Shown here: positions 46-22,905 of the stretch, in pieces
How positions within the stretch are numbered: position 1 is the stretch's first letter
Layout: every line of letters starts with the position of its first letter
Sequence record: KM672662.1
Length of the DNA stretch: 64,000 bases
Reading direction: 5' to 3' (one strand)
Source of the DNA: Acinetobacter phage YMC13/03/R2096
Position numbers and translations under genes: made by a program
The notes under the pieces: generated by a model
The model's input: only the letters and a program-made list of their open reading frames with translations
Database searches by the model: none
Told to the model about the DNA's origin: nothing

Positions 46-744
46 TTAATTTAAGTAAGTTTTTATTAGCTCTTCTGCGCTAACTACACACATACCATAA
101 CCGAAGCAACCACCATAGTCAATAAAAAGTTGGTTACCTCTTAAAATTTTTCTTCCTCTGGTTACAGAATGACCATGTATCATCAAATCTACACCAGAAA
201 TTGGTTGAATTTCCTCCAAAGATTGAATTGTTGAACGCTCCCACATTAAAATATCCTGTAGTTCTCGTCCACATACCTTATGTTTTGCCTTGAGGTGGTA
301 AACCCCCTCATGGTATTCATTGTAAGGGTAATCTGCATGAGTTACTACAAACCGTTTACCGTGCACATCTATCTCAATGATCAAAGGTAGCTCAGCAAAG
401 ACTTTAGCAATGTTATACATAGCTTGACCATCTAATTGGTAAAACCAAGCACCACCATTATCAATATGGCATCGTGCATAACTCTCATTGTATAAACCTT
501 GAATGGCTAAGTCTTCATGGTTACCCCTTACAGATTCAAACCAATCCTCTTTTAATAATTGGATAACCTCTAGGTTTTGCTTCCCACGATCCACCAAATC
601 ACCAGTACAAATTAAGAGGTCTTCCTCAAAATTAAAGCCTTTTGACTGAAGAACTCCCATTAAAAGGTCCAAACACCCATGAATATCCCCACAGAACCAC
701 ACCTTACCCTTGCGAGGTTTCACTACTTTAACCAAATCAACCAT
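46..744 (-). CDS. Ser/Thr protein phosphatase (calcineurin-like metallophosphoesterase)
   Basis: Translated motifs GDIHG, GDLVDRG, GNHE and VTHADYP match the PPP-family phosphoesterase signature. T5-like phages carry a homolog. Confidence 0.85.
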   Translation of the reverse strand: MVDLVKVVKPRKGKVWFCGDIHGCLDLLMGVLQSKGFNFEEDLLICTGDLVDRGKQNLEVIQLLKEDWFESVRGNHEDLAIQGLYNESYARCHIDNGGAWFYQLDGQAMYNIAKVFAELPLIIEIDVHGKRFVVTHADYPYNEYHEGVYHLKAKHKVCGRELQDILMWERSTIQSLEEIQPISGVDLMIHGHSVTRGRKILRGNQLFIDYGGCFGYGMCVVSAEELIKTYLN

Positions 745-1180
745 TCAAGAACTCCTGATTTACTCGTTCGTCTTCACTCTTATAAGTAATAACTTCAACA
801 TGGTCATAAAAACCCCATTGCATCATAGTTTCAAGTTGATATTCACCAAATCCCGAATAACTATCTTCAAAAGAAACTATGGCAGAAAGTCTTTCTTTAA
901 ATTTCTTAAAATTTTCATCCCAGCCTATTTTTTGACGTATCATAACAGTCCGTGCTGAGATATACTCCATAACATCTTTATATTTATGTCTCTCCTCTTC
1001 GAAGTCTTTCATCATAGCGCACTCCACTCTTCTGTAATCATGAGAGAATATCTCAATCTCTTTGATTATAGGTTCAAGTGCCTCTTTCACCTTCTCAGCA
1101 ACCTCTCGATCACTCACAATGACAACGCTGACAGTATCTGGACCACTTCCTGACAGTAAAACCTCATGAATTTCACTCAT
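737..1180 (-). CDS. hypothetical early protein
   Basis: Intact 147-aa ORF that overlaps the neighbouring gene by a few nt, as in compact operons. Confidence 0.5.
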   Translation of the reverse strand: MSEIHEVLLSGSGPDTVSVVIVSDREVAEKVKEALEPIIKEIEIFSHDYRRVECAMMKDFEEERHKYKDVMEYISARTVMIRQKIGWDENFKKFKERLSAIVSFEDSYSGFGEYQLETMMQWGFYDHVEVITYKSEDERVNQEFLNG

Positions 1181-1479
1181 TTTTCACCTCTTTTAAATTT
1201 GTTAAAGATAGCTTGTTTATTCTCTAGGAAGAAACACACTAGAAATATCATTAAAAATGCAATTATTGGAACTAAAACAACACCACGAGATGCAATTATA
1301 AGACCAATTATGGCTAAAACAAAAGTTACTCCAAAAAAACTAATCGCAAAAATTGCAAAAGCCTTACTTAAAGGACCTTCTACATCCATAAACACCTCCA
1401 AAACATAAAATTTAAGTAATAAAAAACCCTGAAGGATTACCTTCAGGGTTAATTTACCAGTTATCTTATTCAGAGTCAA
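1177..1479 (-). CDS. small membrane protein
   Basis: 100-aa ORF with two or three hydrophobic helices. Confidence 0.45.
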   Translation of the reverse strand: MTLNKITGKLTLKVILQGFLLLKFYVLEVFMDVEGPLSKAFAIFAISFFGVTFVLAIIGLIIASRGVVLVPIIAFLMIFLVCFFLENKQAIFNKFKRGEK

Positions 1480-1882
1480 CTGATTTTGCTTTAGAAGCTC
1501 GTTTTGGTTGAGATTTTGTAGCTACTTCTGCTGGTTTTTGTTTTTCAACTTCCACTTCAACTTCTTTAGGAATCTCAGCTTGTTTTACTGGTTCTTCTTT
1601 TGGTTGTTCACCAACTTTGAATGCAGCATAAGCTAATGGAAAGTGTTTACTTACAAGATCATCTGTACCATTAACAAAAACAATGAAACGTGCACTAGAA
1701 CCTAATGCGATATTTCCTTGTGTTCTTGAAAGCACAGTTTCAGACAATTCAAATCCCCACTTGCTAAGCACAAGAAGATTCTGATTACTCTTGTGAAAAG
1801 AGTTTGAATAGACACTTACTTCGATTTTACCATCTTCAAGTCGTCTAAGTTTTGGTGCAAATGTTGTATTTAATTCGGACAT
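1466..1882 (-). CDS. hypothetical protein with K/E-rich C-terminus
   Basis: 138-aa ORF tightly packed against its neighbours. Confidence 0.5.
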   Translation of the reverse strand: MSELNTTFAPKLRRLEDGKIEVSVYSNSFHKSNQNLLVLSKWGFELSETVLSRTQGNIALGSSARFIVFVNGTDDLVSKHFPLAYAAFKVGEQPKEEPVKQAEIPKEVEVEVEKQKPAEVATKSQPKRASKAKSVDSE

Positions 1883-1892
1883 TAAGAACTCC

Positions 1893-2081
1893 TTAACCTT
1901 CTAATCCTTCACGTTTATTACTTCGCTTACTTTTTCGATCTAAAGTACGGGCTTTATCATTAAGTTTTCTCTGAAGTTTATCGCCAAGACCATAACCATC
2001 AGACATCTCAACACTAAGACCAAGACCATAACCATCTTTATAAGCTTTGCGTTTAGCCACGAATACACTCCTATGTGACAA
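1893..2081 (-). CDS. small hypothetical protein
   Basis: 62-aa ORF in the same operon. Confidence 0.3.
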   Translation of the reverse strand: MSHRSVFVAKRKAYKDGYGLGLSVEMSDGYGLGDKLQRKLNDKARTLDRKSKRSNKREGLEG

Positions 2082-2137
2082 ATAAGTTACTTTACTACTT
2101 AAATAAGTTTACCACGTTTTAACAATGTGTCAACTAT

Positions 2138-2374
2138 TTATTCCTCTTCATCATCTCCACCGTATCCAAATCTTGAATTAAAGAAACATTCTACAAGTGT
2201 GCATATGATGTTGTATATGATAATTGAGAGAATTCCCACTGTCAAGATACTTTGATCAAATCCCCACCCAACGAAATCCAAGGCAAAGAGTAAGCACTTA
2301 GTTATAACAGCAGATAAAAATATAATACAAAAGTTTAAAACCAAATAGAGTAGTTGCAAACTAGACTCACTCAT
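2138..2374 (-). CDS. small membrane protein
   Basis: 78-aa hydrophobic ORF. Confidence 0.4.
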   Translation of the reverse strand: MSESSLQLLYLVLNFCIIFLSAVITKCLLFALDFVGWGFDQSILTVGILSIIIYNIICTLVECFFNSRFGYGGDDEEE

Positions 2375-2397
2375 AACACCTCCTTGTGAGGATAACC

Positions 2398-2634
2398 TCA
2401 GATCTCTTCCAAGTCATCATAGCCTGTTAGGAGTTTCTCAGATGGCATTTCTTCCACAGATAACTCCCCACATTTTGAACATTCTAAGGTTATTACAGGC
2501 ATCTCTATCCCAAATAACTCATTGAATTCCTTACCACTTTCCTTAAAAATCAAAACACCAGAACCTTTACAGGACCCATTGGTGTGTTTTACAGGTTTAT
2601 CTTTCATAAACACCATCCATGAAAAAGAGGGCAC
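2398..2634 (-). CDS. small hypothetical protein
   Basis: 78-aa ORF. Confidence 0.4.
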   Translation of the reverse strand: MPSFSWMVFMKDKPVKHTNGSCKGSGVLIFKESGKEFNELFGIEMPVITLECSKCGELSVEEMPSEKLLTGYDDLEEI

Positions 2635-2652
2635 TAAGCCCTCAATTTTTAA

Positions 2653-3075
2653 TTAAATATCATACCGAACTCTAATTATCTCACGCTTATCAAGATCTGT
2701 CAAGATACCATAAGCATAACAATTATTCTGTATGTAATTGTCAACAGTTTGAATATTGAAGGATACCCACCTTGGTGACTTACCCTCACTAATTGTACAC
2801 AATAAGCAACTACCATTTCGTATGTGTAGAACAGTCAACATTCCTTCAATACTAACCATCCAGTGTGTAGCAGATTCTAAGTGCTCTTTACGACCCACAA
2901 ATGTTCGAACAACAGATGAATGGACACTTTTCATCTGAATGGCACCTAGAAAGCTGTTGTGCATGACTAATCTAGGTTTCCCACACTGGTATTGACCATT
3001 GTTATAGCTAGTTACACCCTTTAAAGCCATCATCCACCCCAAATTGTTATACAAACCATAAGGACAGTATAACAA
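2653..3075 (-). CDS. hypothetical protein
   Basis: 140-aa ORF. Confidence 0.45.
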   Translation of the reverse strand: MLYCPYGLYNNLGWMMALKGVTSYNNGQYQCGKPRLVMHNSFLGAIQMKSVHSSVVRTFVGRKEHLESATHWMVSIEGMLTVLHIRNGSCLLCTISEGKSPRWVSFNIQTVDNYIQNNCYAYGILTDLDKREIIRVRYDI

Positions 3076-3230
3076 ACAATTCCTGTACAGACAACAAGAG
3101 CAGTATATTTATTCAAAATAAAAACCCCCACATTAGTTGAAGTAGTTTAAACCCAACAAAGGCAAAACCTCCCATAATAACCGATATCACAAGCATACCT
3201 ATAATCATCACAACTATTTTCCAGTTCATG

Positions 3231-3464
3231 TTAATCCCCTTTAGTTGTACCTACATTCTTACCACATAAGAATGCATAAAGCATGACAGGTGCCCAGAAG
3301 AACATAACAAATATGATTATCAGTGATAAAGCAAATGAATTAACAGCTTGTTTTTTCTGTGCTCGATCCAACTTAATCATAACTGCCAGCTTACCAGCAT
3401 TAAAGCAACCGTACATCAGATATAAAGAAACTAAAAAACTTAACGTGTCAGTATTGATCATCAA
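3231..3464 (-). CDS. small membrane protein
   Basis: 77-aa ORF with two TM helices. Confidence 0.4.
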   Translation of the reverse strand: MMINTDTLSFLVSLYLMYGCFNAGKLAVMIKLDRAQKKQAVNSFALSLIIIFVMFFWAPVMLYAFLCGKNVGTTKGD

Positions 3465-3478
3465 TTATCTCCAAAAGA

Positions 3479-3775
3479 TTAATGTTTATGTATGAAGTTT
3501 AAATCACCTAGATTTTTAATGCAAGCATCAATTGTAGCTTGTACACGCTTGTCTAAGGCTTCTAAATCATTTAAGTCACTAGATATTACCTCCATGAACT
3601 TAACACGCTCTAAACAAGCCTTAACAGTCGAGAAATAACCTATAGGTGTTCTTCGAATTTCACCCTCTTGCTTTCCACTTTTTGCAATACTTAAGCTGTA
3701 CAAGATGAAATTCATATCATCCGAACCTAAAGCATAACCTACTTGATCTTTTGTAGGTTCTTTTAACACCTTCAT
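3479..3775 (-). CDS. hypothetical protein
   Basis: 98-aa ORF. Confidence 0.45.
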   Translation of the reverse strand: MKVLKEPTKDQVGYALGSDDMNFILYSLSIAKSGKQEGEIRRTPIGYFSTVKACLERVKFMEVISSDLNDLEALDKRVQATIDACIKNLGDLNFIHKH

Positions 3776-3820
3776 CTTACTCTCCTTGTAAAAATCTTTC
3801 AGGCAGTTGATATGGAATCA

Positions 3821-4192
3821 TTATAAACCTCCAAGGTGTCCTGATTTATGAATTAATTCTGATACAAAACCTTTCAACTCTTCCGATACCTGACCAGACT
3901 CTAATCTCTTCTTATAAGAAACCTCAAGGTCAGAAATAGTGACTCTATGTAAATCTTTATACACTGTGTCATGTTCTCCATAATAACCATACCACAATCT
4001 ACAAGCATATACTATAAAGAAATCTACATCTGTTTTTTTAGATATCTCAACATTGTTTCCATCTCTTGGTTGCGCCCACTTCCAACCAAGACCATGAATT
4101 AATGCAAGTATGTAAAGCTTTTCACTAGGTTTCATACCCTGAACAACAATTAATTGATCATCATTCACACAACTTCTCCCAACAAGAATCAA
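3821..4192 (-). CDS. hypothetical protein
   Basis: 123-aa ORF. Confidence 0.45.
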   Translation of the reverse strand: MILVGRSCVNDDQLIVVQGMKPSEKLYILALIHGLGWKWAQPRDGNNVEISKKTDVDFFIVYACRLWYGYYGEHDTVYKDLHRVTISDLEVSYKKRLESGQVSEELKGFVSELIHKSGHLGGL

Positions 4193-4487
4193 ACCACTCA
4201 GACTTAGCTACAAAGTAACCTTTTCCATCATACATAATGTAATCACCCATATTAGCAATCTGTAATCCATACTCTGGATCAGTGAATTCAAACTCACGTA
4301 TATCACATGTGGTTATTGCCGAAGGCTTATATACACCACCAACTTCCATCCAAAGTGCTAGAGTAGCAATGTCGGTGGAGGAACCACCAAACATTACCGC
4401 AATAACAACCTTACCACTTACCTTGTTCTTACAACGTTTGGCAGTTCTCATTATTAAGCTCCAGATACTTGGTTTTCGGTGCACCAC
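4161..4487 (-). CDS. hypothetical protein
   Basis: 108-aa ORF. Confidence 0.45.
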   Translation of the reverse strand: MVHRKPSIWSLIMRTAKRCKNKVSGKVVIAVMFGGSSTDIATLALWMEVGGVYKPSAITTCDIREFEFTDPEYGLQIANMGDYIMYDGKGYFVAKSEWFDSCWEKLCE

Positions 4488-4726
4488 TCTTTCATGTCAG
4501 TTTTGGTAATAGTTGCACTATCCACATCAATCGTAATCAGGTCGTAACCTTCAGGCTCATTTCTGGTGTACTGTTCTTTGTAAACACCATCACGGAATAG
4601 TCGATTTAACTGTAGGGCATTTTTCAGTGCACCCAAAGAGGTCCAGCATTTACCATTTTTTGTCACAGTCATACCAGCAGCTAGGTACTTACCGTTCTTT
4701 TTACCACGAATCATGTAAATTTTCAT
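4454..4726 (-). CDS. hypothetical protein
   Basis: 90-aa ORF. Confidence 0.45.
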   Translation of the reverse strand: MKIYMIRGKKNGKYLAAGMTVTKNGKCWTSLGALKNALQLNRLFRDGVYKEQYTRNEPEGYDLITIDVDSATITKTDMKEWCTENQVSGA

Positions 4727-4741
4727 AATTACTCCAAAATA

Positions 4742-5206
4742 TCAATGAAAAATAACTGCTACTAACCCTATTACCAACAGAACTGACATACATATTGCAA
4801 AAATCTGGAATGCATCAGTTCTACAATAGTATCCTAACACACCCTTCCATCCACGAGCAAGAGCAACATCAAAGTTTTTAACTTGAAACTTGCACTTGTA
4901 TGCATCATTTCTACGAACCGTACATGAACCATAGCTATAATCGATGTCGTAATCTTTGAGAGGTGAATTTCCAACATCTCGATAGAGATCCCTCCCATCA
5001 TAACTTTCAAAGTCAAAACGAACATTCATCAGGTCTTCAAACTCAATGACATGCTTAATGAACTGCTTTTTAAGGAAAGCTTTTTTATCCTCTTCATCTT
5101 GCTGGACCTTTTTCTCAGTAGCTACCTTTTGCATGTGTTCATGATACCACTCAGGTTTTTGTTCCTCTTCTTTCATCTTTTTCTTCACAAGATTCTTGAT
5201 CATCAA
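4742..5206 (-). CDS. hypothetical protein with C-terminal TM anchor
   Basis: 154-aa ORF with a hydrophobic C-terminus. Confidence 0.45.
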   Translation of the reverse strand: MMIKNLVKKKMKEEEQKPEWYHEHMQKVATEKKVQQDEEDKKAFLKKQFIKHVIEFEDLMNVRFDFESYDGRDLYRDVGNSPLKDYDIDYSYGSCTVRRNDAYKCKFQVKNFDVALARGWKGVLGYYCRTDAFQIFAICMSVLLVIGLVAVIFH

Positions 5207-5341
5207 GTGCTTCCTCCAAATCCTGTCTTACAATACCCTCATCATAACCCAGCTTAACATCTTTCTTTTTATCCCGAAAGGTCTTAGGCTGGTTAAATTT
5301 GTGAAGATTTTTCGCTACAGGGTTCCTATAACCTTTAGCCA

Positions 5342-5554
5342 TTAGATTAAGTGCTCAAATCTAAGGTATTCATAAACCTTTTCACCATTTAGTGTAACTT
5401 CACCAACACTACCAACAATTTCAATCTGAAGGACATTATCACCTTTACTCAAGGTGTGCACCTCCATCTTACCACAACGTACAGACTGGATGTTGTCTGC
5501 ACTTTTAAACTCATCAATCAAACCGAAAAGTTTATATTCATCATAAGTTTGCAT
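5342..5554 (-). CDS. small hypothetical protein
   Basis: 70-aa ORF. Confidence 0.4.
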   Translation of the reverse strand: MQTYDEYKLFGLIDEFKSADNIQSVRCGKMEVHTLSKGDNVLQIEIVGSVGEVTLNGEKVYEYLRFEHLI

Positions 5555-5689
5555 AGATAGTTATTAACTCCAAAATAATAATAAAAATAAACATCATAAG
5601 TAAAAACTGTTTGAAATTCCTACTTACCATAATAGCCATACCAAAAAAGCAAGCATTTAAGGCCAACATCAATACAAAACCTAAAAGTG

Positions 5690-6178
5690 TCATTTCTTGT
5701 ATTCCTCTATAGCCTCCTGAAGTGTTGGGTATACAATGTAGTAAATATACTGAGAGAAACTTCTAAAGTCATCGTACCACTCTTGAAATGACTCTTCTTT
5801 ATAATTGAACCATTTATCAAGAACTCGCTTAGCTTCTAAACTAACATAAACACTTGACGATACCCCTGAAGTATCTAACAACTCCAAAACCTTCATGTCT
5901 TGCTCATACTTAACACGTTTAGCTTTAGCATATTGTCGAAACCGAGATTGTTGACCCGTGTAAATTTTCAAACGCTTCAAGGATTTCTTACCCCACTCAA
6001 TACCTAAGAAGCTATGTTGGTAAACAGCACATTCTTCATATGACAACTTTTCCATCACCTCAAAGAACTTTGCACGATCCTCAAGGTACTTCTTGAGGTT
6101 TTTTATCGCTTCTTTCTGCATGTAGCTAATACTAGTGCTTGTCAAATTGACAAACCCTACAGGATTAAATTCAGACAT
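5690..6178 (-). CDS. hypothetical protein
   Basis: 162-aa ORF. Confidence 0.5.
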   Translation of the reverse strand: MSEFNPVGFVNLTSTSISYMQKEAIKNLKKYLEDRAKFFEVMEKLSYEECAVYQHSFLGIEWGKKSLKRLKIYTGQQSRFRQYAKAKRVKYEQDMKVLELLDTSGVSSSVYVSLEAKRVLDKWFNYKEESFQEWYDDFRSFSQYIYYIVYPTLQEAIEEYKK

Positions 6179-6191
6179 CTAAACTCTCCTA

Positions 6192-6572
6192 TTATTTATA
6201 ATTAACTTTAGTTACTTCAACCTTTTCAATATCGCCACCAGCACCATGAGTGTAGAAATCACTAATGGTAACAGCGAGTTGCACAATATCCGAAAGTTTT
6301 CCTTGATATACACCAAGTTTTGGACGATGGTGATAACCACCAAAATCACAGTTTGGGTCCTCTCCATACACAGTCCACAAACCTTCTTCATCCAGAGAGT
6401 GCTTCTTTAACAACCTTTTCCCAGCATAACTACCAAGCCAACCTTTTGCTTTCTTGTCATGCTTATACTTCTCAGATTCCTCATATCTAAGAGCTTCTTC
6501 AGGCGTGCTAAACTCTTTACCATCATCTGCAACATAAATAGTTTTAACGTGCATTTTATCCTCACTAATCAA
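6192..6572 (-). CDS. hypothetical protein
   Basis: 126-aa ORF. Confidence 0.5.
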   Translation of the reverse strand: MISEDKMHVKTIYVADDGKEFSTPEEALRYEESEKYKHDKKAKGWLGSYAGKRLLKKHSLDEEGLWTVYGEDPNCDFGGYHHRPKLGVYQGKLSDIVQLAVTISDFYTHGAGGDIEKVEVTKVNYK

Positions 6573-6582
6573 TATCTTTCAA

Positions 6583-7809
6583 CTAATCTTTGTTTAACCA
6601 ATCTCTAAACAAACTATACATACGTTTTGATGCTATTGCAAGCACAATTTTCTCACCTTTACGTATTCTTGAACGCCAAACCCATTGAAGCATCTCCGAC
6701 AAGGCAAAAACCTCACGGGAAATCGGATATCCATAATCTTGGAGGTATGACTCCACACTAACCATCGGGTAACGATCATAACAGTGCACTAAAACTGACT
6801 TGTCAGCATAATCATTAGTTGCTCTTGTCTGAACAGGTAACCAACAGTAACTCCAAGAGCCATCGTTACTTCTTTTACGGTAATAACCTTTTGGTTTAAC
6901 TAAGTTTTTACTTCCAACATGTCTTTCTTTTGGTATTGTGTACATTAAATCATCTGGTGTGGCTTTATACTTCATGGCAACACTTCTAATGTATTTACCA
7001 ACCACATCAAGTTGAGCCTGACTAGCTCTTTTATACCAACTACTTGACAAACCAGTGGAAATTGACAAGTCAGCCCTAGGTTCAACCAATTCAATTAAAT
7101 CACGAATGGTGTCTTTAGATGTCTTCGTTACCTCAATTTCTCTAAAAGGTTTAGATTCAACACCCTTCAACCTTAAGAAACGATCTAAAATGTTACCTTC
7201 AAACATATAAGTGAGGATAACCACCCTTTTAGCCACTGTCATTAACCTGATAGGTAGTTGAGTCACCATCATTAAATTACTTCTCTTGGCAACATAAAGG
7301 CACTGACTATCACAATACTGCTTCAACATGTAATATTTATGAGCTTTCCCAACTGGCTGGTCGCACACCCAAGATAGCATACCATCATGTGGATCTACTG
7401 AAACTTTCTCATTCGAGTACAACCACTTATAATCATCTATGGAATACTTATCAAAACCTTCGATAACATTGATCTCCTCGTCAATCACAACGGTGTAGCC
7501 ATGATATTCAACAAGGTCTAAGTGCTCGTTGGTCAGGGACATGTACAGGCTATGCGTACAAGCAATATTTTCACCATTACTTAGAAGTTCAAGTAAGTGC
7601 TCCGATTTAGTATCATGATCTTCAGTGGTTGGGTAGGAGAATGATATACGGCTAACCGCTTGGGATAACCTTCCACCATCACCCACCTCAGAGAGTAAAG
7701 GAGAAACATAAATATATTTCTCTTCATGGTACTTTTCCATCCACTTAATAATTCCAGTGGTTTTATGTGAACCCATAATAGAATCAAGAACTTCAATTAC
7801 CTCAGCCAT
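6583..7809 (-). CDS. hypothetical protein with degenerate P-loop-like N-terminus
   Basis: 408-aa ORF. It carries a GSHKTTG segment followed by a hydrophobic-DEE segment (VVIDEE) that resemble deviant Walker A/B motifs. The nearby genes give no hint of its family. Confidence 0.5.
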   Translation of the reverse strand: MAEVIEVLDSIMGSHKTTGIIKWMEKYHEEKYIYVSPLLSEVGDGGRLSQAVSRISFSYPTTEDHDTKSEHLLELLSNGENIACTHSLYMSLTNEHLDLVEYHGYTVVIDEEINVIEGFDKYSIDDYKWLYSNEKVSVDPHDGMLSWVCDQPVGKAHKYYMLKQYCDSQCLYVAKRSNLMMVTQLPIRLMTVAKRVVILTYMFEGNILDRFLRLKGVESKPFREIEVTKTSKDTIRDLIELVEPRADLSISTGLSSSWYKRASQAQLDVVGKYIRSVAMKYKATPDDLMYTIPKERHVGSKNLVKPKGYYRKRSNDGSWSYCWLPVQTRATNDYADKSVLVHCYDRYPMVSVESYLQDYGYPISREVFALSEMLQWVWRSRIRKGEKIVLAIASKRMYSLFRDWLNKD

Positions 7810-8043
7810 TTAATCTCCAAAATATTCACGTAGTGTATCTATCCAATACTGATTATACTTCAAGTCATACTCTATTTCTGCAACCTCACGGGCAGTAAAC
7901 CACCAAACACCATTCTCATTACATGTGTTTTCTACAACAAAATCACCATCCGAGTTTTTATAACAAATAAAAATTAAATCTAAACCTTCGTGATAAAAGG
8001 CATGTTTCTTAGCTTTTTCCATCACACATCCTCCACTTTGCAA
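7810..8043 (-). CDS. small hypothetical protein
   Basis: 77-aa ORF. Confidence 0.4.
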   Translation of the reverse strand: MQSGGCVMEKAKKHAFYHEGLDLIFICYKNSDGDFVVENTCNENGVWWFTAREVAEIEYDLKYNQYWIDTLREYFGD

Positions 8044-16050: not shown

Positions 16051-16136
16051 GGGTGATGTTGGGGTGTTGGTCAACCCCATCAGACTGTAAATCTGACGTG
16101 AAAGCTGTCTAGGTTCGAATCCTAGATCACCCACCA
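16051..16136 (+). tRNA. tRNA-Tyr (GTA)
   Basis: Acceptor GGGTGAT/ATCACCC. Anticodon loop is ctGTAaa. Long variable arm. T-arm is GGTTCGAATCC. CCA is encoded. Confidence 0.8.
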
Positions 16137-16315: not shown

Positions 16316-17057
16316 CCTGAGTAAATTAAGAATTACCCTTCGGGGTATGGGTCGTGTATAACCCTTAGATAAACTGCAAAACAGTATAAAGTCGTAACGG
16401 CAGTTATGGCGCAGAGTAAAAATCTGTCAAGTACACACTCAAGGTATCATACTTATGTGGCGTAGAGCCAATCGGTGTAAACCATTTAAGTATGGGGGTG
16501 TAATGCTCCTGAGTCGATAGGCAATAAGAGAACTTGAAGGTATCTAGCGAAGTTGATTGTCAAGTCAAAACGCTGTTTACCATTGTGAGAGGTATATAGA
16601 GTTTAACAGGTGGTGCTGAATCTCGTAGTCCTAAACCAAGTGGACAATATATGCTTGAAACATCGTGCATGGTAAAGCACATTAGGTAGTGTGGTATTGA
16701 TGGGTTCAAAAGATCTGTTAGCCACAGAGAAACCACTATCTATGCAATACAAATTTCATTTTAGGAAAAAATTAAATTCAAAAGTGTTTCTCACGTTGGC
16801 ATGAAAGGTGCTTACATAGTAATGGGTTGTCCATTGCACATTTAACCTGAAAGGTTATTTGTATTTTCATGAAAGGATTATGTTTGGTAGGCATACTAGC
16901 ATAGTTTGAGTATTGGGAGAGTAGTTCCAACGTCTAAGAGTGGTTAGCTATACTGACCAGCACTGATCACTACTATATAAAGTATAGTGGATAATGAGGG
17001 AAAAGATAATCCTCTCAAGGTGGTCATTTAAACGTGTAATCTCAGCGTTTTACTTGT

Positions 17058-17526: not shown

Positions 17527-18225
17527 AAGAATTTTAAGAATTTCAAACGAGTAGAGGTACAGTCCTGAAAGTTTGAAAGTGGGGCGACACCTGCCTGAAG
17601 TAGTAGCTAATAATGGCCTGTTAGTGAATCTAAGTGGTGTGACTTAACTGACTTGGAGAGAAAGGTCGGGGCAGAGCACAAGTAGCTGAGATGGATTAGC
17701 GCTACCCTGAAGAGGTTGAGAGGTTGGATCGTTACCAACATTGTGCACCAAATTTTTAAAAGAAGAATTATTTTAGGATTACCATAACCTAAAGGCTCGA
17801 AGGGGCGGTCTGCAACATCGTTGTTGGTGAGTTGAAGTCTCACATGGTAATCCAAAGTGATTTTTATAGAGGTTAAACCAGATAGGTTCTGGGACACCCT
17901 GCTAAGGTGATCGTGTTAGAAATAGCATTCGGATCGAGACCGATGGCCTCTGCCAAATTTGTTGTGCGCTCCACAGGTTGATCCTGTTACGGTTATCCTC
18001 AAGACCAGACCGCAACAAAGCAACATCAATGGCTTGTCTAAAGTAACGCTGTTGATGGGGCAAATGCAGACACCGATTCGCCTCTGACCTAGTTAAGCAC
18101 ACTAATCGGTTTTTTCTTAGGGCTATTGGACAGGTAATTACCCCTCCTTTAGTTACGACAAGATATCTTCGTGGCTCGCTACCTTGAAGGCATCCCAGTT
18201 AGGGTTCTGGTTAAAAACTCACTAC

Positions 18226-18477: not shown

Positions 18478-18600
18478 TGGACACTTCCTAAGGTTCTTTC
18501 TACAGGTTCGAAACTGTTTTAAGAATTGCTGGTGCTAGGTTTAGCGTCAAGAATCATTCGAAGGGTTCTTGGGGTGGTGAGTTCGATTCTCACAGTGTTC
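18478..18600 (+). ncRNA. aberrant 123-nt tRNA-like element
   Basis: GGACACT pairs with AGTGTTC on 7 of 7 positions, enclosing about 110 nt. Inside are two T-arm-like hairpins (ACAGG-TTCGAAA-CTGT and GTGAG-TTCGATT-CTCAC) and a 6-bp stem CAAGAA/TTCTTG. There is no canonical anticodon arm and no CCA. Confidence 0.3.
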
Positions 18601-18619
18601 CCCCTATTTTAAAGTTTAT

Positions 18620-18783: not shown

Positions 18784-18860
18784 GGGTAGTTGAAGGGAAT
18801 GGCATACCTTTCACGCTTAGAACGTGAAGTTTCTGAGTTCGAGTCTCAGACTACCTACCA
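18784..18860 (+). tRNA. class-I tRNA with anticodon TAG, presumably Leu (CUA/CUG)
   Basis: Acceptor GGGTAGT/ACTACCT. Stem TCACG/CGTGA pairs perfectly. Loop ctTAGaa. Variable loop is 5 nt. A73 and CCA. Confidence 0.6.
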
Positions 18861-18866
18861 AATTCT

Positions 18867-18942
18867 GGGGATATAGCCCAACGGCAGAGGCAAGAGGTTT
18901 AAACCCTCTCAAGTTTCAGTTCGAATCTGAATATCCCTACCA
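18867..18942 (+). tRNA. class-I tRNA with anticodon TAA, presumably Leu (UUA/UUG)
   Basis: Acceptor GGGGATA/TATCCCT. Stem AGAGG/CCTCT pairs perfectly. Loop ttTAAac. Variable loop is 5 nt. T-arm is TTCAG-TTCGAAT-CTGAA. A73 and CCA. Confidence 0.6.
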
Positions 18943-18957: not shown

Positions 18958-19239
18958 ATGGAAGTATTACTTGTTAGTGATTGTAGATGCCAAGAGCGTT
19001 ATGACTTTGCAGATATTGTAAAGGATGCTCAAGAACAAGGTATCAAAATTAAGTACACATTAGTTCCTAAGAAGATATCCTATGAAGATAGAACTTACAC
19101 ATTTGTTAATGTTGAAGATCTCACTAAGGATAAAAGTTGTATTGTTGGTAAGAAGTTTGATGATGTCTATTTGACACCAGAAGCTAAAGATGCTATACCT
19201 TTAGGGTTGCTATCATTTATACTTACAAGAATACGTTAA
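18958..19239 (+). CDS. small hypothetical protein embedded in tRNA cluster
   Basis: 93-aa ORF. An AGGAG site lies 8 nt upstream of the ATG. Confidence 0.5.
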   Translation: MEVLLVSDCRCQERYDFADIVKDAQEQGIKIKYTLVPKKISYEDRTYTFVNVEDLTKDKSCIVGKKFDDVYLTPEAKDAIPLGLLSFILTRIR

Positions 19240-19246
19240 GTTTTAA

Positions 19247-19334
19247 GTCCCTACACCCTCCAAGAGCCTTCTAAGCTCTCGACATTAAATAGGGGGAAGG
19301 TAGTCAGAGTGTTCGATTCACTGTGGGGACTCCA
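19247..19334 (+). tRNA. atypical tRNA-like element, anticodon TCT (Arg?). It has a rudimentary D-arm and a 27-nt variable region.
   Basis: Acceptor GTCCCTA/TGGGGAC and stem AGAGC/GCTCT pair perfectly. Loop ctTCTaa. T-arm is GAGTG-TTCGATT-CACTG. CCA is encoded. Confidence 0.4.
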
Positions 19335-19335
19335 A

Positions 19336-19411
19336 GCCGAATTAGCTCAGTTGGTAGAGCAGCGCACTTGTAATGCGAAGGTCGTAGACTCGGATTCTAC
19401 ATTCGGCACCA
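19336..19411 (+). tRNA. tRNA-Thr (TGT)
   Basis: Acceptor GCCGAAT/ATTCGGC pairs perfectly. D-arm is GCTCAGTTGGTAGAGC. Loop ctTGTaa. T-loop is CTCGGAT. CCA is encoded. Confidence 0.75.
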
Positions 19412-19417
19412 TATTTA

Positions 19418-19507
19418 GGTCGTGTAGCTTAAAGAAAGCAAGAGGATTTATAAACCTTTTCACTAGATAAGTGCTTGATGTGGGGGCAGTACCCACCACG
19501 ACTACCA
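19418..19507 (+). tRNA. class-II tRNA-like element with a 9-nt anticodon loop (AUUUAUAAA); identity unresolved
   Basis: Acceptor GGTCGTG/CACGACT. D-stem GCTT/AAGC. Stem AGAGG/CCTTT encloses the 9-nt loop. Long variable arm. T-arm is GTGGG-GGCAGTA-CCCAC. A73 and CCA. Confidence 0.4.
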
Positions 19508-19509
19508 AT

Positions 19510-19579
19510 AAGTCCCCCTCTGGGAGGGAAGAGGTCTCCAAAACCACTTAGCTGTGTTCGATTCACAGGGGATTTGCCA
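19510..19579 (+). tRNA. tRNA-Trp (CCA), short 70-nt form
   Basis: Acceptor AAGTCCC/GGGATTT. Loop ctCCAaa. T-arm is CTGTG-TTCGATT-CACAG. G73 and CCA. The D-arm is compact. Confidence 0.55.
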
Positions 19580-19729
19580 AATTAGATTAAGATGTTGGTG
19601 CGTGACAACCTTAATCGGCATGATTTTAGTTTATGTCGATGTGATAAACATGGCTAGATAGATATGTCGATAAAAACTAGAAATTAAAACACGTAGTATT
19701 GAAATGTTAAAAATAATTAAACAAAACAC

Positions 19730-20408: not shown

Positions 20409-20903
20409 ATGGAAGAAATTTGGAAGCCTGTTGAAGGTTTTGGTGGCTATGAAGTTAGTGATTTGGGTCGTGTACGTAAGGTTGACGGAACTATTGTTAA
20501 TCTATTCAACCATCCGCAAGGATACCTAAAAGTAGCCCTTAAGGTTGCTGGCCAAAAGGTTAGTAAGAAGTACGTGCATAGGCTTGTAGCTGCTGCATTT
20601 ATACCTAACCCAGACAACCTTCCTTATGTAAATCATAAGAATGGCAAGCAGTGGTGTAATGAGGTTGATAACCTTGAGTGGATATCCTCTAAAGATAACC
20701 ATACACATGCTCGTGAGACTGGTCTTATTGACTATTACAAGTCACACCGAGTAGTTTCTGTCGAGGATGTACGATACATACGTAAGCATATAAAACCTTA
20801 CGATAAAGAATTCGGTAATGGTGCTATTGCAAAGCGATTGGGCTTAAGCCGAGACCAAGTTACTGACATTGCCCTGTACCGGAATTACAAAGACGTGATA
20901 TAG
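20409..20903 (+). CDS. free-standing HNH homing endonuclease
   Basis: EVSDLGRVR..., a NUMOD4-like N-terminus, and YVNHKNGKQWCNEVDNLEWISSKDNHTHA (HNH_3). ATG at 20409 follows AGAGGA. It sits immediately upstream of the intron-containing terminase gene. Confidence 0.7.
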   Translation: MEEIWKPVEGFGGYEVSDLGRVRKVDGTIVNLFNHPQGYLKVALKVAGQKVSKKYVHRLVAAAFIPNPDNLPYVNHKNGKQWCNEVDNLEWISSKDNHTHARETGLIDYYKSHRVVSVEDVRYIRKHIKPYDKEFGNGAIAKRLGLSRDQVTDIALYRNYKDVI

Positions 20904-20912
20904 GAGGTATTA

Positions 20913-20990
20913 ATGTCGAATATATTTGCACCGTGTAGTCCAGTGCAAGCAAAGTTACTGCAAAGTGATGCAACAATTACAGTTTATGGT
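20913..20990 (+). CDS. terL: terminase large subunit, exon 1 (MSNIFAPCSPVQAKLLQSDATITVYG)
   Basis: ATG follows AGGAGG. The frame hits TGA right after ..VYGG and a group I intron follows. The exon end is approximate, 20990 or 20994. Confidence 0.6.
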
Positions 20991-21312
20991 GGGTGAATAT
21001 AGGCTCCTTTAAGTAGTAATACTTATCGAATAACCTTGTGAAATGCTGGAAACCCCTTAGAGCCTTGAGTACCGAAGTGTAACAACCTTAAGGATTGGGC
21101 AATCAGCAGGGAAGCCTCTTATTAGAGGAACCCTCAACGACTATCGAAAGGGTAACGAACCGAGTAGAGTAGGGGCAAGTGTCCCGAAGTGCAAGGCACC
21201 TCAAGTAGGTGAAGATATAGTCTGGACTCATGGGAAACCTTGAGCATGCAATTGGCTAATGTGCTGTTGCATGGGTTGGCTCTAACGAAGCCTTCTTAAC
21301 ACAATCACTATG
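20991..21312 (+). ncRNA. group I intron 1 in terL (ORF-less, about 320 nt)
   Basis: Contains conserved group I core elements: an R-like element CAACGACTAT and an S-like element GAAGATATAGTCTG. It also has the blocks CCTTTAAGT..ACTTATCGAATAACC, GAAATGCTGGAAACCCC and CAATCAGCAG, which are shared with intron 2 and with the nrdB intron. It ends ..CACTATG (omega-G). Confidence 0.65.
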
Positions 21313-21382
21313 GGGTCTGCGAAAACCTATGGAGGTCTACTAAGACACCTTCAATATGTAAATAGTCCTCATTATGTTGGGT
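21313..21382 (+). CDS. terL: terminase large subunit, exon 2 (GSAKTYGGLLRHLQYVNSPHYVG, P-loop region)
   Basis: A 23-codon open frame lies between the two introns. GSAKT preceded by exon-1 YG gives a Walker-A-like segment. Confidence 0.55.
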
Positions 21383-21631
21383 GAAAATACATGCCCCTTT
21401 AAGTGGTGACACTTATCGAATAACCCCTCTAATTGCTGGGAACCCTCTTTGAGGCAATCAGCAGCCAAGCCCAGCAGGGAAGGTTCAACGACTATTCCGA
21501 CAGGAAGTACACTCAAGTGAGTGGAAACGGGGGGCATCTCGCAGAGATGATGATATAGTCTGATCTACATGGTGACATGTAGCAAGGTTAAAACCTTGGA
21601 GTTAGCTTAACGAGCTAACACTAACAAAATG
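21383..21631 (+). ncRNA. group I intron 2 in terL (ORF-less, about 250 nt)
   Basis: Begins GAAAATACATGCCCCTTTAAGTGG..ACTTATCGAATAACC. Contains GCTGGGAACCC, CAATCAGCAG, CAACGACTAT (R) and GATGATATAGTCTG (S). A terminal hairpin is followed by ..AACAAAATG (omega-G at 21631). Confidence 0.65.
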
Positions 21632-22905
21632 ATGTTATCCGTAAAAATGAAGTAGTTCTGAGGGCTGGTGGTGGTGCTTTTGAAGAAGCCAAAGCTTTAT
21701 ACAAGGCATTTGAGCCGAGAGTTAAAATCACAGAGAAACCTATGAGGTTTCGCTTTCCTTCTGGTGCTGTAATTAACTTTGCAGGTGCTGAAGATGAGAA
21801 AGCTATGGAAAAATATCGTGGTCTTAACTTGACTGGCGTGATGGTCGATGAAGGTACACAGTTATCAGAAAGACAAATTTGGTTCTTGATCTCTCGTTTG
21901 CGTAACGGTAAAGATCCAAACATTATGCCAAATATATGGATTACATGTAACCCTGACCCTGATAGTTATTTGTTTGAATGGGTTAAGTGGTATTTATATC
22001 CTGTAGGGCATCCTCTTGCTGGAAGACCTGATAAAGATAAGAATGGATTAAAAAGATATTTCGTATCGACTCCAGAAGGTTTAGTTTGGAGTGATAATGA
22101 ACAGGAATTACTTGATAAGTATCCGCATTTATTTACAAAAGGGACTAGACCACTAAGCTTTAGATTTATTGGTGGTACAGTTTACGATAACCCACCTCTT
22201 CTTAAGAACTCACCTCAATATCTTCAAAACCTACTCCAACAGAAAGACCGAGTAGTGCGAGAACGTGAGTTGTACGGCAACTGGTTTGCACGTAGGGAAG
22301 ATTCAAGTTACTTCAACAGGTCTTGGTGTGAGATAGTTGATAAGCCTCCTGAAAGGGTCCGTAAAAGGGTTCGTTCTTGGGACTTGGCTTTCACATTACC
22401 AACTGAGACAAACCCAAACCCCGATTATACCTGTGGTGTTCGTCTGAGTAAAGATGATGAAGGTACAATCTATGTTGAAGACATGGTTCTTGAAAGGGTT
22501 GGTTCTGGGCAAATTATTGAGTTAATTGCAAAGACTGGTCTAGAAGATGCTGAGATGTTTGGTGTTGTTGAAACAACAATCCCTCAAGATGCTGGTGGTA
22601 TGGCTAAATTTGCAGCTAGGGATATGGCCTCTAAGCTAAGAGAGCATGGTGTATCTCCTATTGTAGTTCCTGTAGGTAATAAAGGCAAGCTCGTTCGTTT
22701 TATTCCATTCTCAGGTGCAGCACAAAATAAACATGTGAAGATTGTACGTGGTGATTGGAATGCAGCCTTCTTTCATCAGTTAGAAGCTTTTGGAAGTGGA
22801 AATAAGGCTGTGCACGATGATGCTGTCGATGCTGTTGCTGATGCTTATAAAAGAGTAGCAGAAAATAGAACGATTGACTATGCCATCGACTTAGCAGTTT
22901 TATAA
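21632..22905 (+). CDS. terL: terminase large subunit, exon 3 (ATPase Walker B and nuclease domain)
   Basis: ..VIRKNEVVLRAGGGAFEE..LTGVMVDEG (Walker B), plus a C-terminal RNaseH-like nuclease region. The frame is open only from 21625. The spliced product would be about 473 aa. Confidence 0.75.

Follow-up and report, generated by a model that had tools for sequence, protein, structure and literature searches.

Locus and structure of the 90-nucleotide tRNA gene

The sequence of Acinetobacter phage YMC13/03/R2096 (record KM672662.1), of which a stretch of 64,000 nucleotides (nt) was analysed and is called the window below, carries on its plus strand an array of transfer RNA (tRNA) genes between positions 16051 and 19858. 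This study concerns one gene of that array, a 90-nt element with an encoded CCA end at 19418-19507 (+), which is referred to as the UAU tRNA and is a candidate reader of the codon AUA. The source phage infects A. baumannii and belongs to the group of AM24, Herod and Bestia; in 12 kb of sequence, the parts that match are ~96-97% identical. The upstream neighbour of the gene is tRNA-Thr(UGU) (19336-19411), 6 nt away, and the downstream neighbour is a tRNA-Trp(CCA)-like gene (19510-19579), at a distance of 2 nt. With a covariance model of its family, described below, the gene is found on the plus strand with a score of 101.8 bits (E 1.2e-21).

The acceptor stem is formed by the 5' strand GGUCGUG (19418-19424) and CACGACU (19497-19503), with G1.U72 and six Watson-Crick pairs. 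U8-A9 leads to the D arm (19427-19439), which has a 4-bp stem GCUU/AAGC and a 5-nt loop AAAGA without G18, and a single A separates this arm from the 5-bp anticodon stem AGAGG/CCUUU (19441-19445 and 19455-19459). The loop enclosed by this stem, AUUUAUAAA (19446-19454), is formally 9 nt long and consists of the unpaired A31.A39 around the seven nucleotides U32-U33-U34-A35-U36-A37-A38, with the putative anticodon UAU at 19449-19451. After a single U, the variable arm forms a hairpin with a 4-bp stem CACU/AGUG and a 5-nt loop AGAUA (19461-19473), followed by the 6-nt single strand CUUGAU (19474-19479). The T arm (19480-19496) combines a 5-bp stem GUGGG/CCCAC with the non-canonical loop GGCAGUA, which is without T54-Psi55 and keeps C56, and the gene is completed by the discriminator A73 (19504) and CCA (19505-19507). 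The fold of lowest free energy is identical with this cloverleaf (-25.4 kcal/mol, z = -2.56), and one of 200 shuffled sequences folded equally well. The long base-paired variable arm gives the UAU tRNA a class-II-like architecture. A sequence-only reading made earlier, without database searches, had described an acceptor, a class-II-like arm, D-stem, 5-bp anticodon stem, T-arm, A73 and CCA for this gene, and all of these are present at the coordinates it gave.

BLAST searches identified homologues in phage Bestia (98% identity), in BS46 and Phab24 (both 90%) and in the T4-like Acinetobacter phage Acj61 (90%), and nine records of Aeromonas Plateaulakevirus matched at 71-74%. Further members were obtained by pattern scans of metagenome and IMG/VR contigs, including contigs from genomes of 250-262 kb. 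The family amounts to 20 distinct sequences from about seven lineages (Acinetobacter phages, Aeromonas phages and uncultured phage contigs), and the family counts given below refer to these 20. Two divergent members, from contigs L037 and L038, gave no BLAST match among GenBank phages. A contig scan of bacterial genomes returned two chance matches only; the Acinetobacter/Aeromonas type was absent from it, and the pattern used would miss divergent types. When the pattern was reduced to the anticodon loop and the variable loop alone, mostly chance matches were obtained.

The comparison with tRNAs of related phages that the sequence-only reading had proposed as a check could thus be made with these homologues, and the helices proved to be kept by compensatory changes. 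In the alignment, 93.2% of the pair cells hold a standard pair; shifting the 3' partners by 1-3 columns lowers this share to 37-48%. Of the 26 pairs tested, 17 show changes on both sides; the covariation score was reached by none of 500 shuffles. Compensatory changes affect all seven pairs of the acceptor stem (99.3% of cells paired), all five pairs of the anticodon stem (96%) and three of the five pairs of the T stem. The pairs of the variable-arm stem covary as well (A-U, G-C, C-G) within a variable region of 20-24 nt, while the AGAU of its loop is invariant in all members. The D arm is nearly invariant across the family, U12-A23 and A73 are present in 20 of 20 members, the encoded CCA in 19, and C4-G69 in 16, the window copy included. 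RNAalifold, with no structure supplied, returned the same cloverleaf, including the 9-nt loop. The family covariance model scores the members at 84-102 bits; below them follow, at 46 and 38 bits, tRNA-Ile(GAU) genes that have the elbow of the UAU tRNA. A pairing of the variable loop with the anticodon loop or the T loop was also considered and was dropped, being not conserved across lineages. On this comparative evidence, the 90-nt element is almost certainly a functional tRNA gene under selection.

The elbow of the molecule deviates from the canonical arrangement of G18-G19 with T54-Psi55-C56: the D loop is AAAGA, the T loop GGCAGUA, and only G19-C56 is kept, a tertiary pair found in 20 of 20 members. 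Positions 18 and 55 covary perfectly (A.G in ten members, G.U in six and G.C in four), 54-58 alternates among G.G, A.U and C.A, and the type of T loop covaries with the type of D loop. The elbow is non-canonical yet evidently intact. Many anticodons are represented among the phage tRNAs that have this elbow, and most of these genes are invisible to ARAGORN (contig L042, IMG/VR 3300033074_001483, 400-8000; contig L033, 1605-1678). In its variants the D loop is AAAAGUA or AAAGA without G18, the T loop is GGCAGUA, AGCGUUA, AUCGUUA or CCCGAUA, and the 18-55 pair is A.G, G.U or G.C. The alternative elbow explains why standard finders miss such genes, and its occurrence in many other phage tRNAs speaks against taking it for a mark of decay.

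In a 5-kb search the Rfam tRNA model RF00005 gave 32.3 bits for the UAU tRNA (gathering score 29, E = 5.8e-4), and in a default Rfam run over the whole window the gene was lost to the default filters. ARAGORN never called the window copy, neither by default nor with lowered thresholds, and its intron and low-threshold options applied to 19200-19650 produced spurious overlapping calls without it. A run with intron options had been suggested by the sequence-only reading. The members from Aeromonas and from contigs L024 and L038 are named tRNA-Ile(tat) by ARAGORN with default settings. None of the GenBank records of Acinetobacter and Aeromonas phages matched by BLAST has an annotated feature beneath the match.

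The bases 31 and 39 that flank the inner loop are A.A, A.C, C.A or C.C in 19 of the 20 members, which accordingly have no 7-nt loop closed by a Watson-Crick 31-39 pair; in the remaining member, from contig L038, a true 7-nt loop is closed by C-G. Since the closing bases pair in one member only, the enlarged loop is a family trait and no accident of the window copy, and the 9-nt loop described from the sequence alone is formally real and conserved, as the RNAalifold consensus agrees. Every one of the 20 members has U-A-U-A at positions 34-37; this core is preceded by a pyrimidine both at position 32 (U or C) and at position 33 (U in 14, C in six), and A predominates at position 38. The frame chosen by both Infernal and ARAGORN is a canonical loop of 7 nt (UUUAUAA) with an A.A mismatch as its closing pair. 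In the equivalent view given by Infernal, the top pair of the anticodon stem is placed at 26.44, with one extra base after the D stem and the anticodon at the normal distance from the elbow; this top pair is A-U, G.U, G-C or C.U across the family. An anticodon arm one layer longer than normal would fit the sequences equally well. When the anticodon was left free in the search pattern, only UAU members were recovered, and the body plan is therefore tied to this anticodon.

Two other frames fit less well. With AUA as the anticodon, position 37 would be C, U or G in several members and the two extra bases would lie on one side only; with UUA or CUA, an invariant U would occupy position 37 and the symmetric 32/38 pattern would be lost. 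The anticodon is very probably UAU, reading AUA, a choice that agrees with the framing by Infernal and ARAGORN, the C-G closure in the member from L038, the invariant U34-A35-U36-A37 and the genomic context described below. The view that no anticodon can be assigned, taken by the sequence-only reading, is thereby superseded. The alternative fold with a canonical 7-nt loop that it had mentioned holds good only if a non-Watson-Crick 31/39 pair is accepted, and otherwise fails.

Probable decoding of AUA and alternative explanations

Comparison of the arrays of related phages revealed an exchange at the position of the UAU tRNA. In the window and in Bestia the order of genes is Thr, UAU tRNA, Trp-like, Met. 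In AM24, Mithridates and Ab15 the same slot, with the same spacer after tRNA-Thr, is occupied by a CAU tRNA of 76-78 nt (GGUCCUU...) that carries C4-G69 and C5-G68. These two pairs are very frequent in tRNA-Ile(CAU) and are required by the E. coli enzyme TilS (PMC1635315). A BLAST search of the AM24 slot tRNA against E. coli genomes found no match, and its tRNA-Ile2 character therefore rests on this C4-G69/C5-G68 signature. A second CAU tRNA is encoded further on in each of these phages and in the window; it has C3-G70, is without C4-G69/C5-G68 and is Met-like. The CAU tRNAs that co-occur with the UAU tRNA in other lineages are likewise all Met- or fMet-like. In none of the phages examined was the UAU tRNA found together with a tRNA-Ile2-like CAU tRNA. 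Herod is without an AUA reader and also without tRNA-Thr.

The UAU tRNA also occurs in small tRNA sets. Aeromonas phage phiA009 (115 kb, 36% GC, ATA at 10.9 per 1000) encodes only two tRNAs, the UAU tRNA and Pro(UGG), and the four tRNAs of BS46 are Tyr, Leu(UAG), Arg(UCU) and the UAU tRNA. The Aeromonas hosts have genomes of ~60% GC in which AUA is very rare, and AGA, CUA and AUA are rare codons in E. coli.

The use of AUA was examined in the window and in phiA009. For 81 ATA codons of the window aligned to AM24, 75 were unchanged and the rest corresponded to ATT/ATC (2), GTA (3) and ACA, with no case of TTA or CTA. At the seven ATA sites of the phiA009 exonuclease, the homologous proteins have I in 53%, L in 19% and V in 8%, whereas at its Leu-codon sites they have L in 40% and I in 7%; because translation of the homologues followed the standard code, their own ATA codons count as I. 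Judged from these alignments, AUA codons in these phages occupy isoleucine positions.

We propose that the gene encodes an AUA-decoding phage tRNA(UAU) that is independent of TilS and is probably charged with isoleucine. This statement as a whole is given a probability of about 0.65. The tRNA would be cut from a polycistronic transcript of the tRNA array, would be charged with isoleucine by the host isoleucyl-tRNA synthetase (IleRS), and would read AUA without lysidine synthesis by the host TilS. Part of the identity set of E. coli IleRS (PMC9976931) is matched, as A73, A35, U36 and A37 are invariant in the 20 members, U12-A23 is present in all of them, and C4-G69 of the same set occurs in 16. 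On B. subtilis ribosomes an unmodified U34 reads AUA selectively (PMC3919564), while a normal tRNA-Ile(UAU) on E. coli ribosomes does not tell AUA from AUG (PMC3575796). The unusual anticodon arm with its open 31/39 and the long variable arm, both conserved, could represent adaptations to the two problems that UAU poses in proteobacterial hosts, its charging and its codon selectivity, and it is their conservation that suggests this.

Several observations weigh against this proposal. Outside this family, long variable arms distinguish the tRNAs for Leu, Ser, Tyr and Sec, and combined with A73 such an arm would also fit the rules of LeuRS or TyrRS. C33, found in six of the 20 members, is unusual for an elongator tRNA, and the invariant AGAU in the variable loop is not accounted for by the proposal. 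With 8.9 per 1000 the codon is not enriched in the window, and it is absent from several open reading frames (ORFs), including the one aligned with the major capsid gene of AM24. Some close relatives do without the UAU tRNA, which is therefore dispensable. The stem determinant C29-G41 of IleRS is not kept, 29-41 being G-C in the window copy and varying across the family, and the D-loop determinants G16, D20 and D21 are impossible in a 5-nt D loop (AAAGA/AAGGA). Finally, E. coli IleRS charges UAU tRNAs poorly, as U34 is badly recognised (PMC3575796).

A more elaborate form of the proposal is a purpose-built system for decoding AUA, in which an unmodified or differently modified U34 works in hosts tuned to lysidine, helped by the open 31/39 and by the variable-loop AGAU as a second recognition element on a tRNA whose true anticodon serves IleRS poorly as a determinant; this elaboration is considered unlikely. 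The permanently open 31/39 may reshape the loop in such a way that U34 reads A and not G, and AGAU may be recognised for charging or by a phage or host factor; its last three bases, GAU, equal the anticodon of the major tRNA-Ile. If true, the UAU tRNA would be the first tRNA-Ile in which a class-II-type arm has a function. That the GAU of the variable loop acts as a surrogate anticodon in the anticodon pocket of IleRS seems sterically unlikely, because class I synthetases approach the tRNA from the D-arm side, and this idea is kept only as part of the elaboration.

Charging with another amino acid has to be weighed against isoleucylation. A synthetase tolerant of the anticodon that accepts a long arm with A73, namely LeuRS or, less likely, TyrRS or SerRS, would place a residue other than isoleucine at AUA; the effect would be statistical recoding or a poisoning of translation. 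Besides the arm and the invariant A73, such an explanation can draw on the poor activity of E. coli-type IleRS on UAU (PMC3575796) and on the long-arm allo-tRNAs with sense anticodons, which insert Ser or Ala in E. coli (PMC5389517). The AUA sites, however, are of isoleucine type, and ATA is not exchanged with Leu codons between sister phages that carry the UAU tRNA or the tRNA-Ile2-like tRNA. Neither the SerRS element G2-C71 nor the AlaRS element G3.U70 is conserved, because the acceptor stem is free to vary; the U35 required by TyrRS is absent; and against LeuRS stand a D loop unlike that of any bacterial tRNA-Leu and the short variable regions of the Leu-anticodon tRNAs of the phage itself. 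Charging with an amino acid other than isoleucine is therefore thought quite doubtful. A tRNA-shaped RNA that does not decode, such as a decoy for a host anticodon nuclease or toxin, a regulator, or the substrate of a phage enzyme that reads the variable loop, would account for the non-canonical T and D loops, the C33 of some members, the invariant AGAU and the dispensability of the gene in relatives, and has a parallel in the long-arm allo-tRNA(UAU) group, which is inactive in translation and linked to toxin-antitoxin loci (PMC5389517). It has a low probability in our view: the odd elbow is common to many ordinary-looking phage tRNAs with other anticodons, and the invariant U-A-U with A37, Y32 and N38 has the look of a decoding loop. 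Moreover, such a role would leave the slot exchange with the tRNA-Ile2-like CAU tRNA unexplained, it sits badly with a gene that is one of only two tRNAs in phiA009, and no neighbouring protein gene (synthetase or modification enzyme) common to the lineages was found.

The formally 9-nt loop, whose positions 3-5 read YUA (UUA or CUA) across the family, could also suggest a nonsense suppressor that uses the 5' half of the loop, or a suppressor of +1 or quadruplet type, as engineered and mutant tRNAs with expanded loops do read longer codons. This is highly improbable, since the required frame puts an invariant U at position 37 and breaks the symmetric 32/38 pattern, the canonical frame being UAU, and since one member has a true 7-nt loop. 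Stop codons are also used normally: genes in the window end with TAA (37), TAG (13) and TGA (9), all three stops terminate genes in every related contig too, and reading any stop as sense brought no real gain of open reading frame in the window or in these contigs. The doubt expressed by the sequence-only reading about an efficient ochre suppressor is thus well founded. Its other alternative, a pseudogene, is excluded by the covariation; the silence of ARAGORN and an Rfam score just 3 bits over the threshold might point to a decaying copy or a chance cloverleaf, yet compensatory changes in every helix and in the tertiary pair among 20 distinct sequences refute this, and it retains hardly any probability. 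The gene is also no longer an anomalous element of unknown decoding function, as it had been called, but a member of a conserved phage tRNA family whose genomic context favours the decoding of AUA.

Other elements in and near the tRNA array

Several further tRNAs of the array are missed by ARAGORN with default settings: Phe(GAA) at 17676-17750 (T loop AUCGUUA, Rfam 38.6 bits), Cys(GCA) at 17779-17854 and Ser(GCU) at 17868-17955, all on the plus strand. The array therefore comprises ~24 tRNAs and not 17. The Trp(CCA)-like gene (19510-19579, +) is 70 nt long, with a tiny D arm and G73, and is called by ARAGORN only with -ps80; its helices are kept through compensatory changes in the copies of Bestia and AM24. 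In Acj61 a gene of this kind lies directly upstream of the UAU tRNA and is annotated only as 'similar to tRNA'. Two tRNAs with Leu anticodons, UAG and UAA (18784-18860 and 18867-18942, +), measure 76-77 nt and have short variable regions unlike those of bacterial tRNA-Leu, with G1.U72 and A73.

An 88-nt element at 19247-19334 (+) combines an acceptor stem with a T arm (UUCGAUU) and with the hairpin AGAGC-CUUCUAA-GCUCU (anticodon UCU, Arg), and is without a normal D arm. Its anticodon hairpin is nested in a CCCUC/GGGGG helix, the z-score of the fold is just -0.72, and the Bestia copy is identical; in Mithridates and Ab15 its slot is filled by a canonical tRNA-Arg(UCU). ARAGORN with -ps85 proposes a weak tRNA-like structure at 18525-18602 (+), whose loop of 8 nt is labelled 'tcga'. 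It folds poorly, the Rfam model for tRNA-Sec gives 18.8 bits, far below its threshold, and it is probably not a gene.

The gap of the array at 16318-17057, between tRNA-Asn and tRNA-Asp, holds a strong match to GOLLD RNA at 16682-17048 (+), which scores 217.6 bits with the model RF02032 (gathering score 150). Two group I introns (RF00028, 78.8 and 96.6 bits) were identified at 20975-21244 and 21360-21582 (+), adjoining an ORF for an HNH/NUMOD4 endonuclease (20409-20903) and located just upstream of the ORF 21742-22905, which aligns with the terminase region of relatives. Since AM24 and Bestia have a single uninterrupted terminase gene of 1431 nt, the terminase gene of the window may be split by these introns. 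Aeromonas phage phiA009 also carries two group I introns (contig L051, 5470-5749 and 20831-21059).

Among these ~96%-identical phages the tRNA array is a mosaic. Genes for HNH homing endonucleases and insertions several hundred nt long flank the slot of tRNA-Thr and the AUA reader (Bestia, contig L003, 3682-4118; AM24, L047, 7982-8398; Ab15, L048, 8337-8849), which suggests that endonuclease-driven exchange of cassettes shuffles the tRNA genes.

Comparison with known tRNAs

No description of a long-arm tRNA-Ile, of 9-nt anticodon loops in phages or of the UAU tRNA family was found in the searchable literature. Two near-rules are broken here on a tRNA with an isoleucine anticodon, as long variable arms are taken to characterise the tRNAs for Leu, Ser, Tyr and Sec, and nearly all tRNAs have a 7-nt loop with a Watson-Crick 31-39 pair. 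Supplying the tRNA for a rare codon would itself be an ordinary job for a phage. Because ARAGORN and Rfam with default settings miss the UAU tRNA and several of its non-canonical neighbours, phage tRNA counts and analyses of codon compensation are underestimates.

With the class II tRNAs of bacteria (Leu, Ser, Tyr, Sec) the UAU tRNA shares the base-paired variable arm and, as in Leu and Tyr, A73. It differs from them by an anticodon of a class I family, by the conserved sequence of its variable loop, which is not usual in class II, and by its D arm, where a stem of 4 bp and a 5-nt loop take the place of the 3-bp stem and large loop of bacterial class II tRNAs. Frameshift suppressors such as SufB2, SufJ and engineered quadruplet decoders also have more than seven formally unpaired loop nucleotides, but theirs result from one base inserted beside the anticodon (8-nt loop), while in the phage tRNA the additional bases are the symmetric 31/39 and the inner seven are canonical.

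Allo-tRNAs, above all the allo-tRNA(UAU) group (PMC5389517), resemble the phage tRNA in the compact D arm, the long variable arm, an anticodon arm extended by one layer and UAU on a class-II-like body. They are defined by acceptor/T stems of 8/4 or 9/3 and mostly have G73 or U73. Their genes lie close to toxin-antitoxin genes in Acidobacteria, Clostridia and Proteobacteria, and the abundant UAU group was inactive in translation tests (PMC5389517). In contrast, all members of the phage family are of the 7/5 type with an invariant A73, lie within phage tRNA arrays, and have a U8 that cannot extend the acceptor. Being 7/5 and not 8/4 or 9/3, the UAU tRNA falls outside the definition of allo-tRNAs.

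Bacterial tRNA-Ile2(UAU), as known from Mycoplasma mobile, from a suppressor of a B. subtilis tilS deletion and from lactic acid bacteria (PMC3575796, PMC3919564, PMC1635315), resembles the phage tRNA in the use of UAU for AUA without lysidine, in A37 and in A73. These bacterial tRNAs are known as molecules of ordinary build, with a short variable region and an anticodon loop of 7 nt, whereas the phage tRNA has a long variable arm with AGAU, a D loop of 5 nt, a T loop of non-canonical sequence and an open 31/39. It is also phage-borne, with gammaproteobacterial hosts in which, by the precedent of E. coli, IleRS and the ribosome handle UAU badly. In M. mobile a UAU tRNA has replaced tRNA-Ile(CAU), and the alternation of the phage UAU tRNA with a CAU tRNA-Ile2-like gene is a further likeness to this case.

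The lysidine-type tRNA-Ile2(CAU), whose C34 is turned into lysidine by the host TilS before charging with isoleucine (PMC1635315), is represented in AM24, Mithridates and Ab15 by the CAU tRNA that has its signature. This CAU tRNA shares with the UAU tRNA the same array slot and spacer, the presumed codon AUA and, in many members, a GGYCC-type start of the acceptor. The UAU tRNA differs from the lysidine type by U34 and by a different body. Their alternation in phages that are otherwise 96% identical forms a natural matched pair, which bears on two old questions: how a U34 reads AUA and not AUG, and how IleRS accepts UAU.

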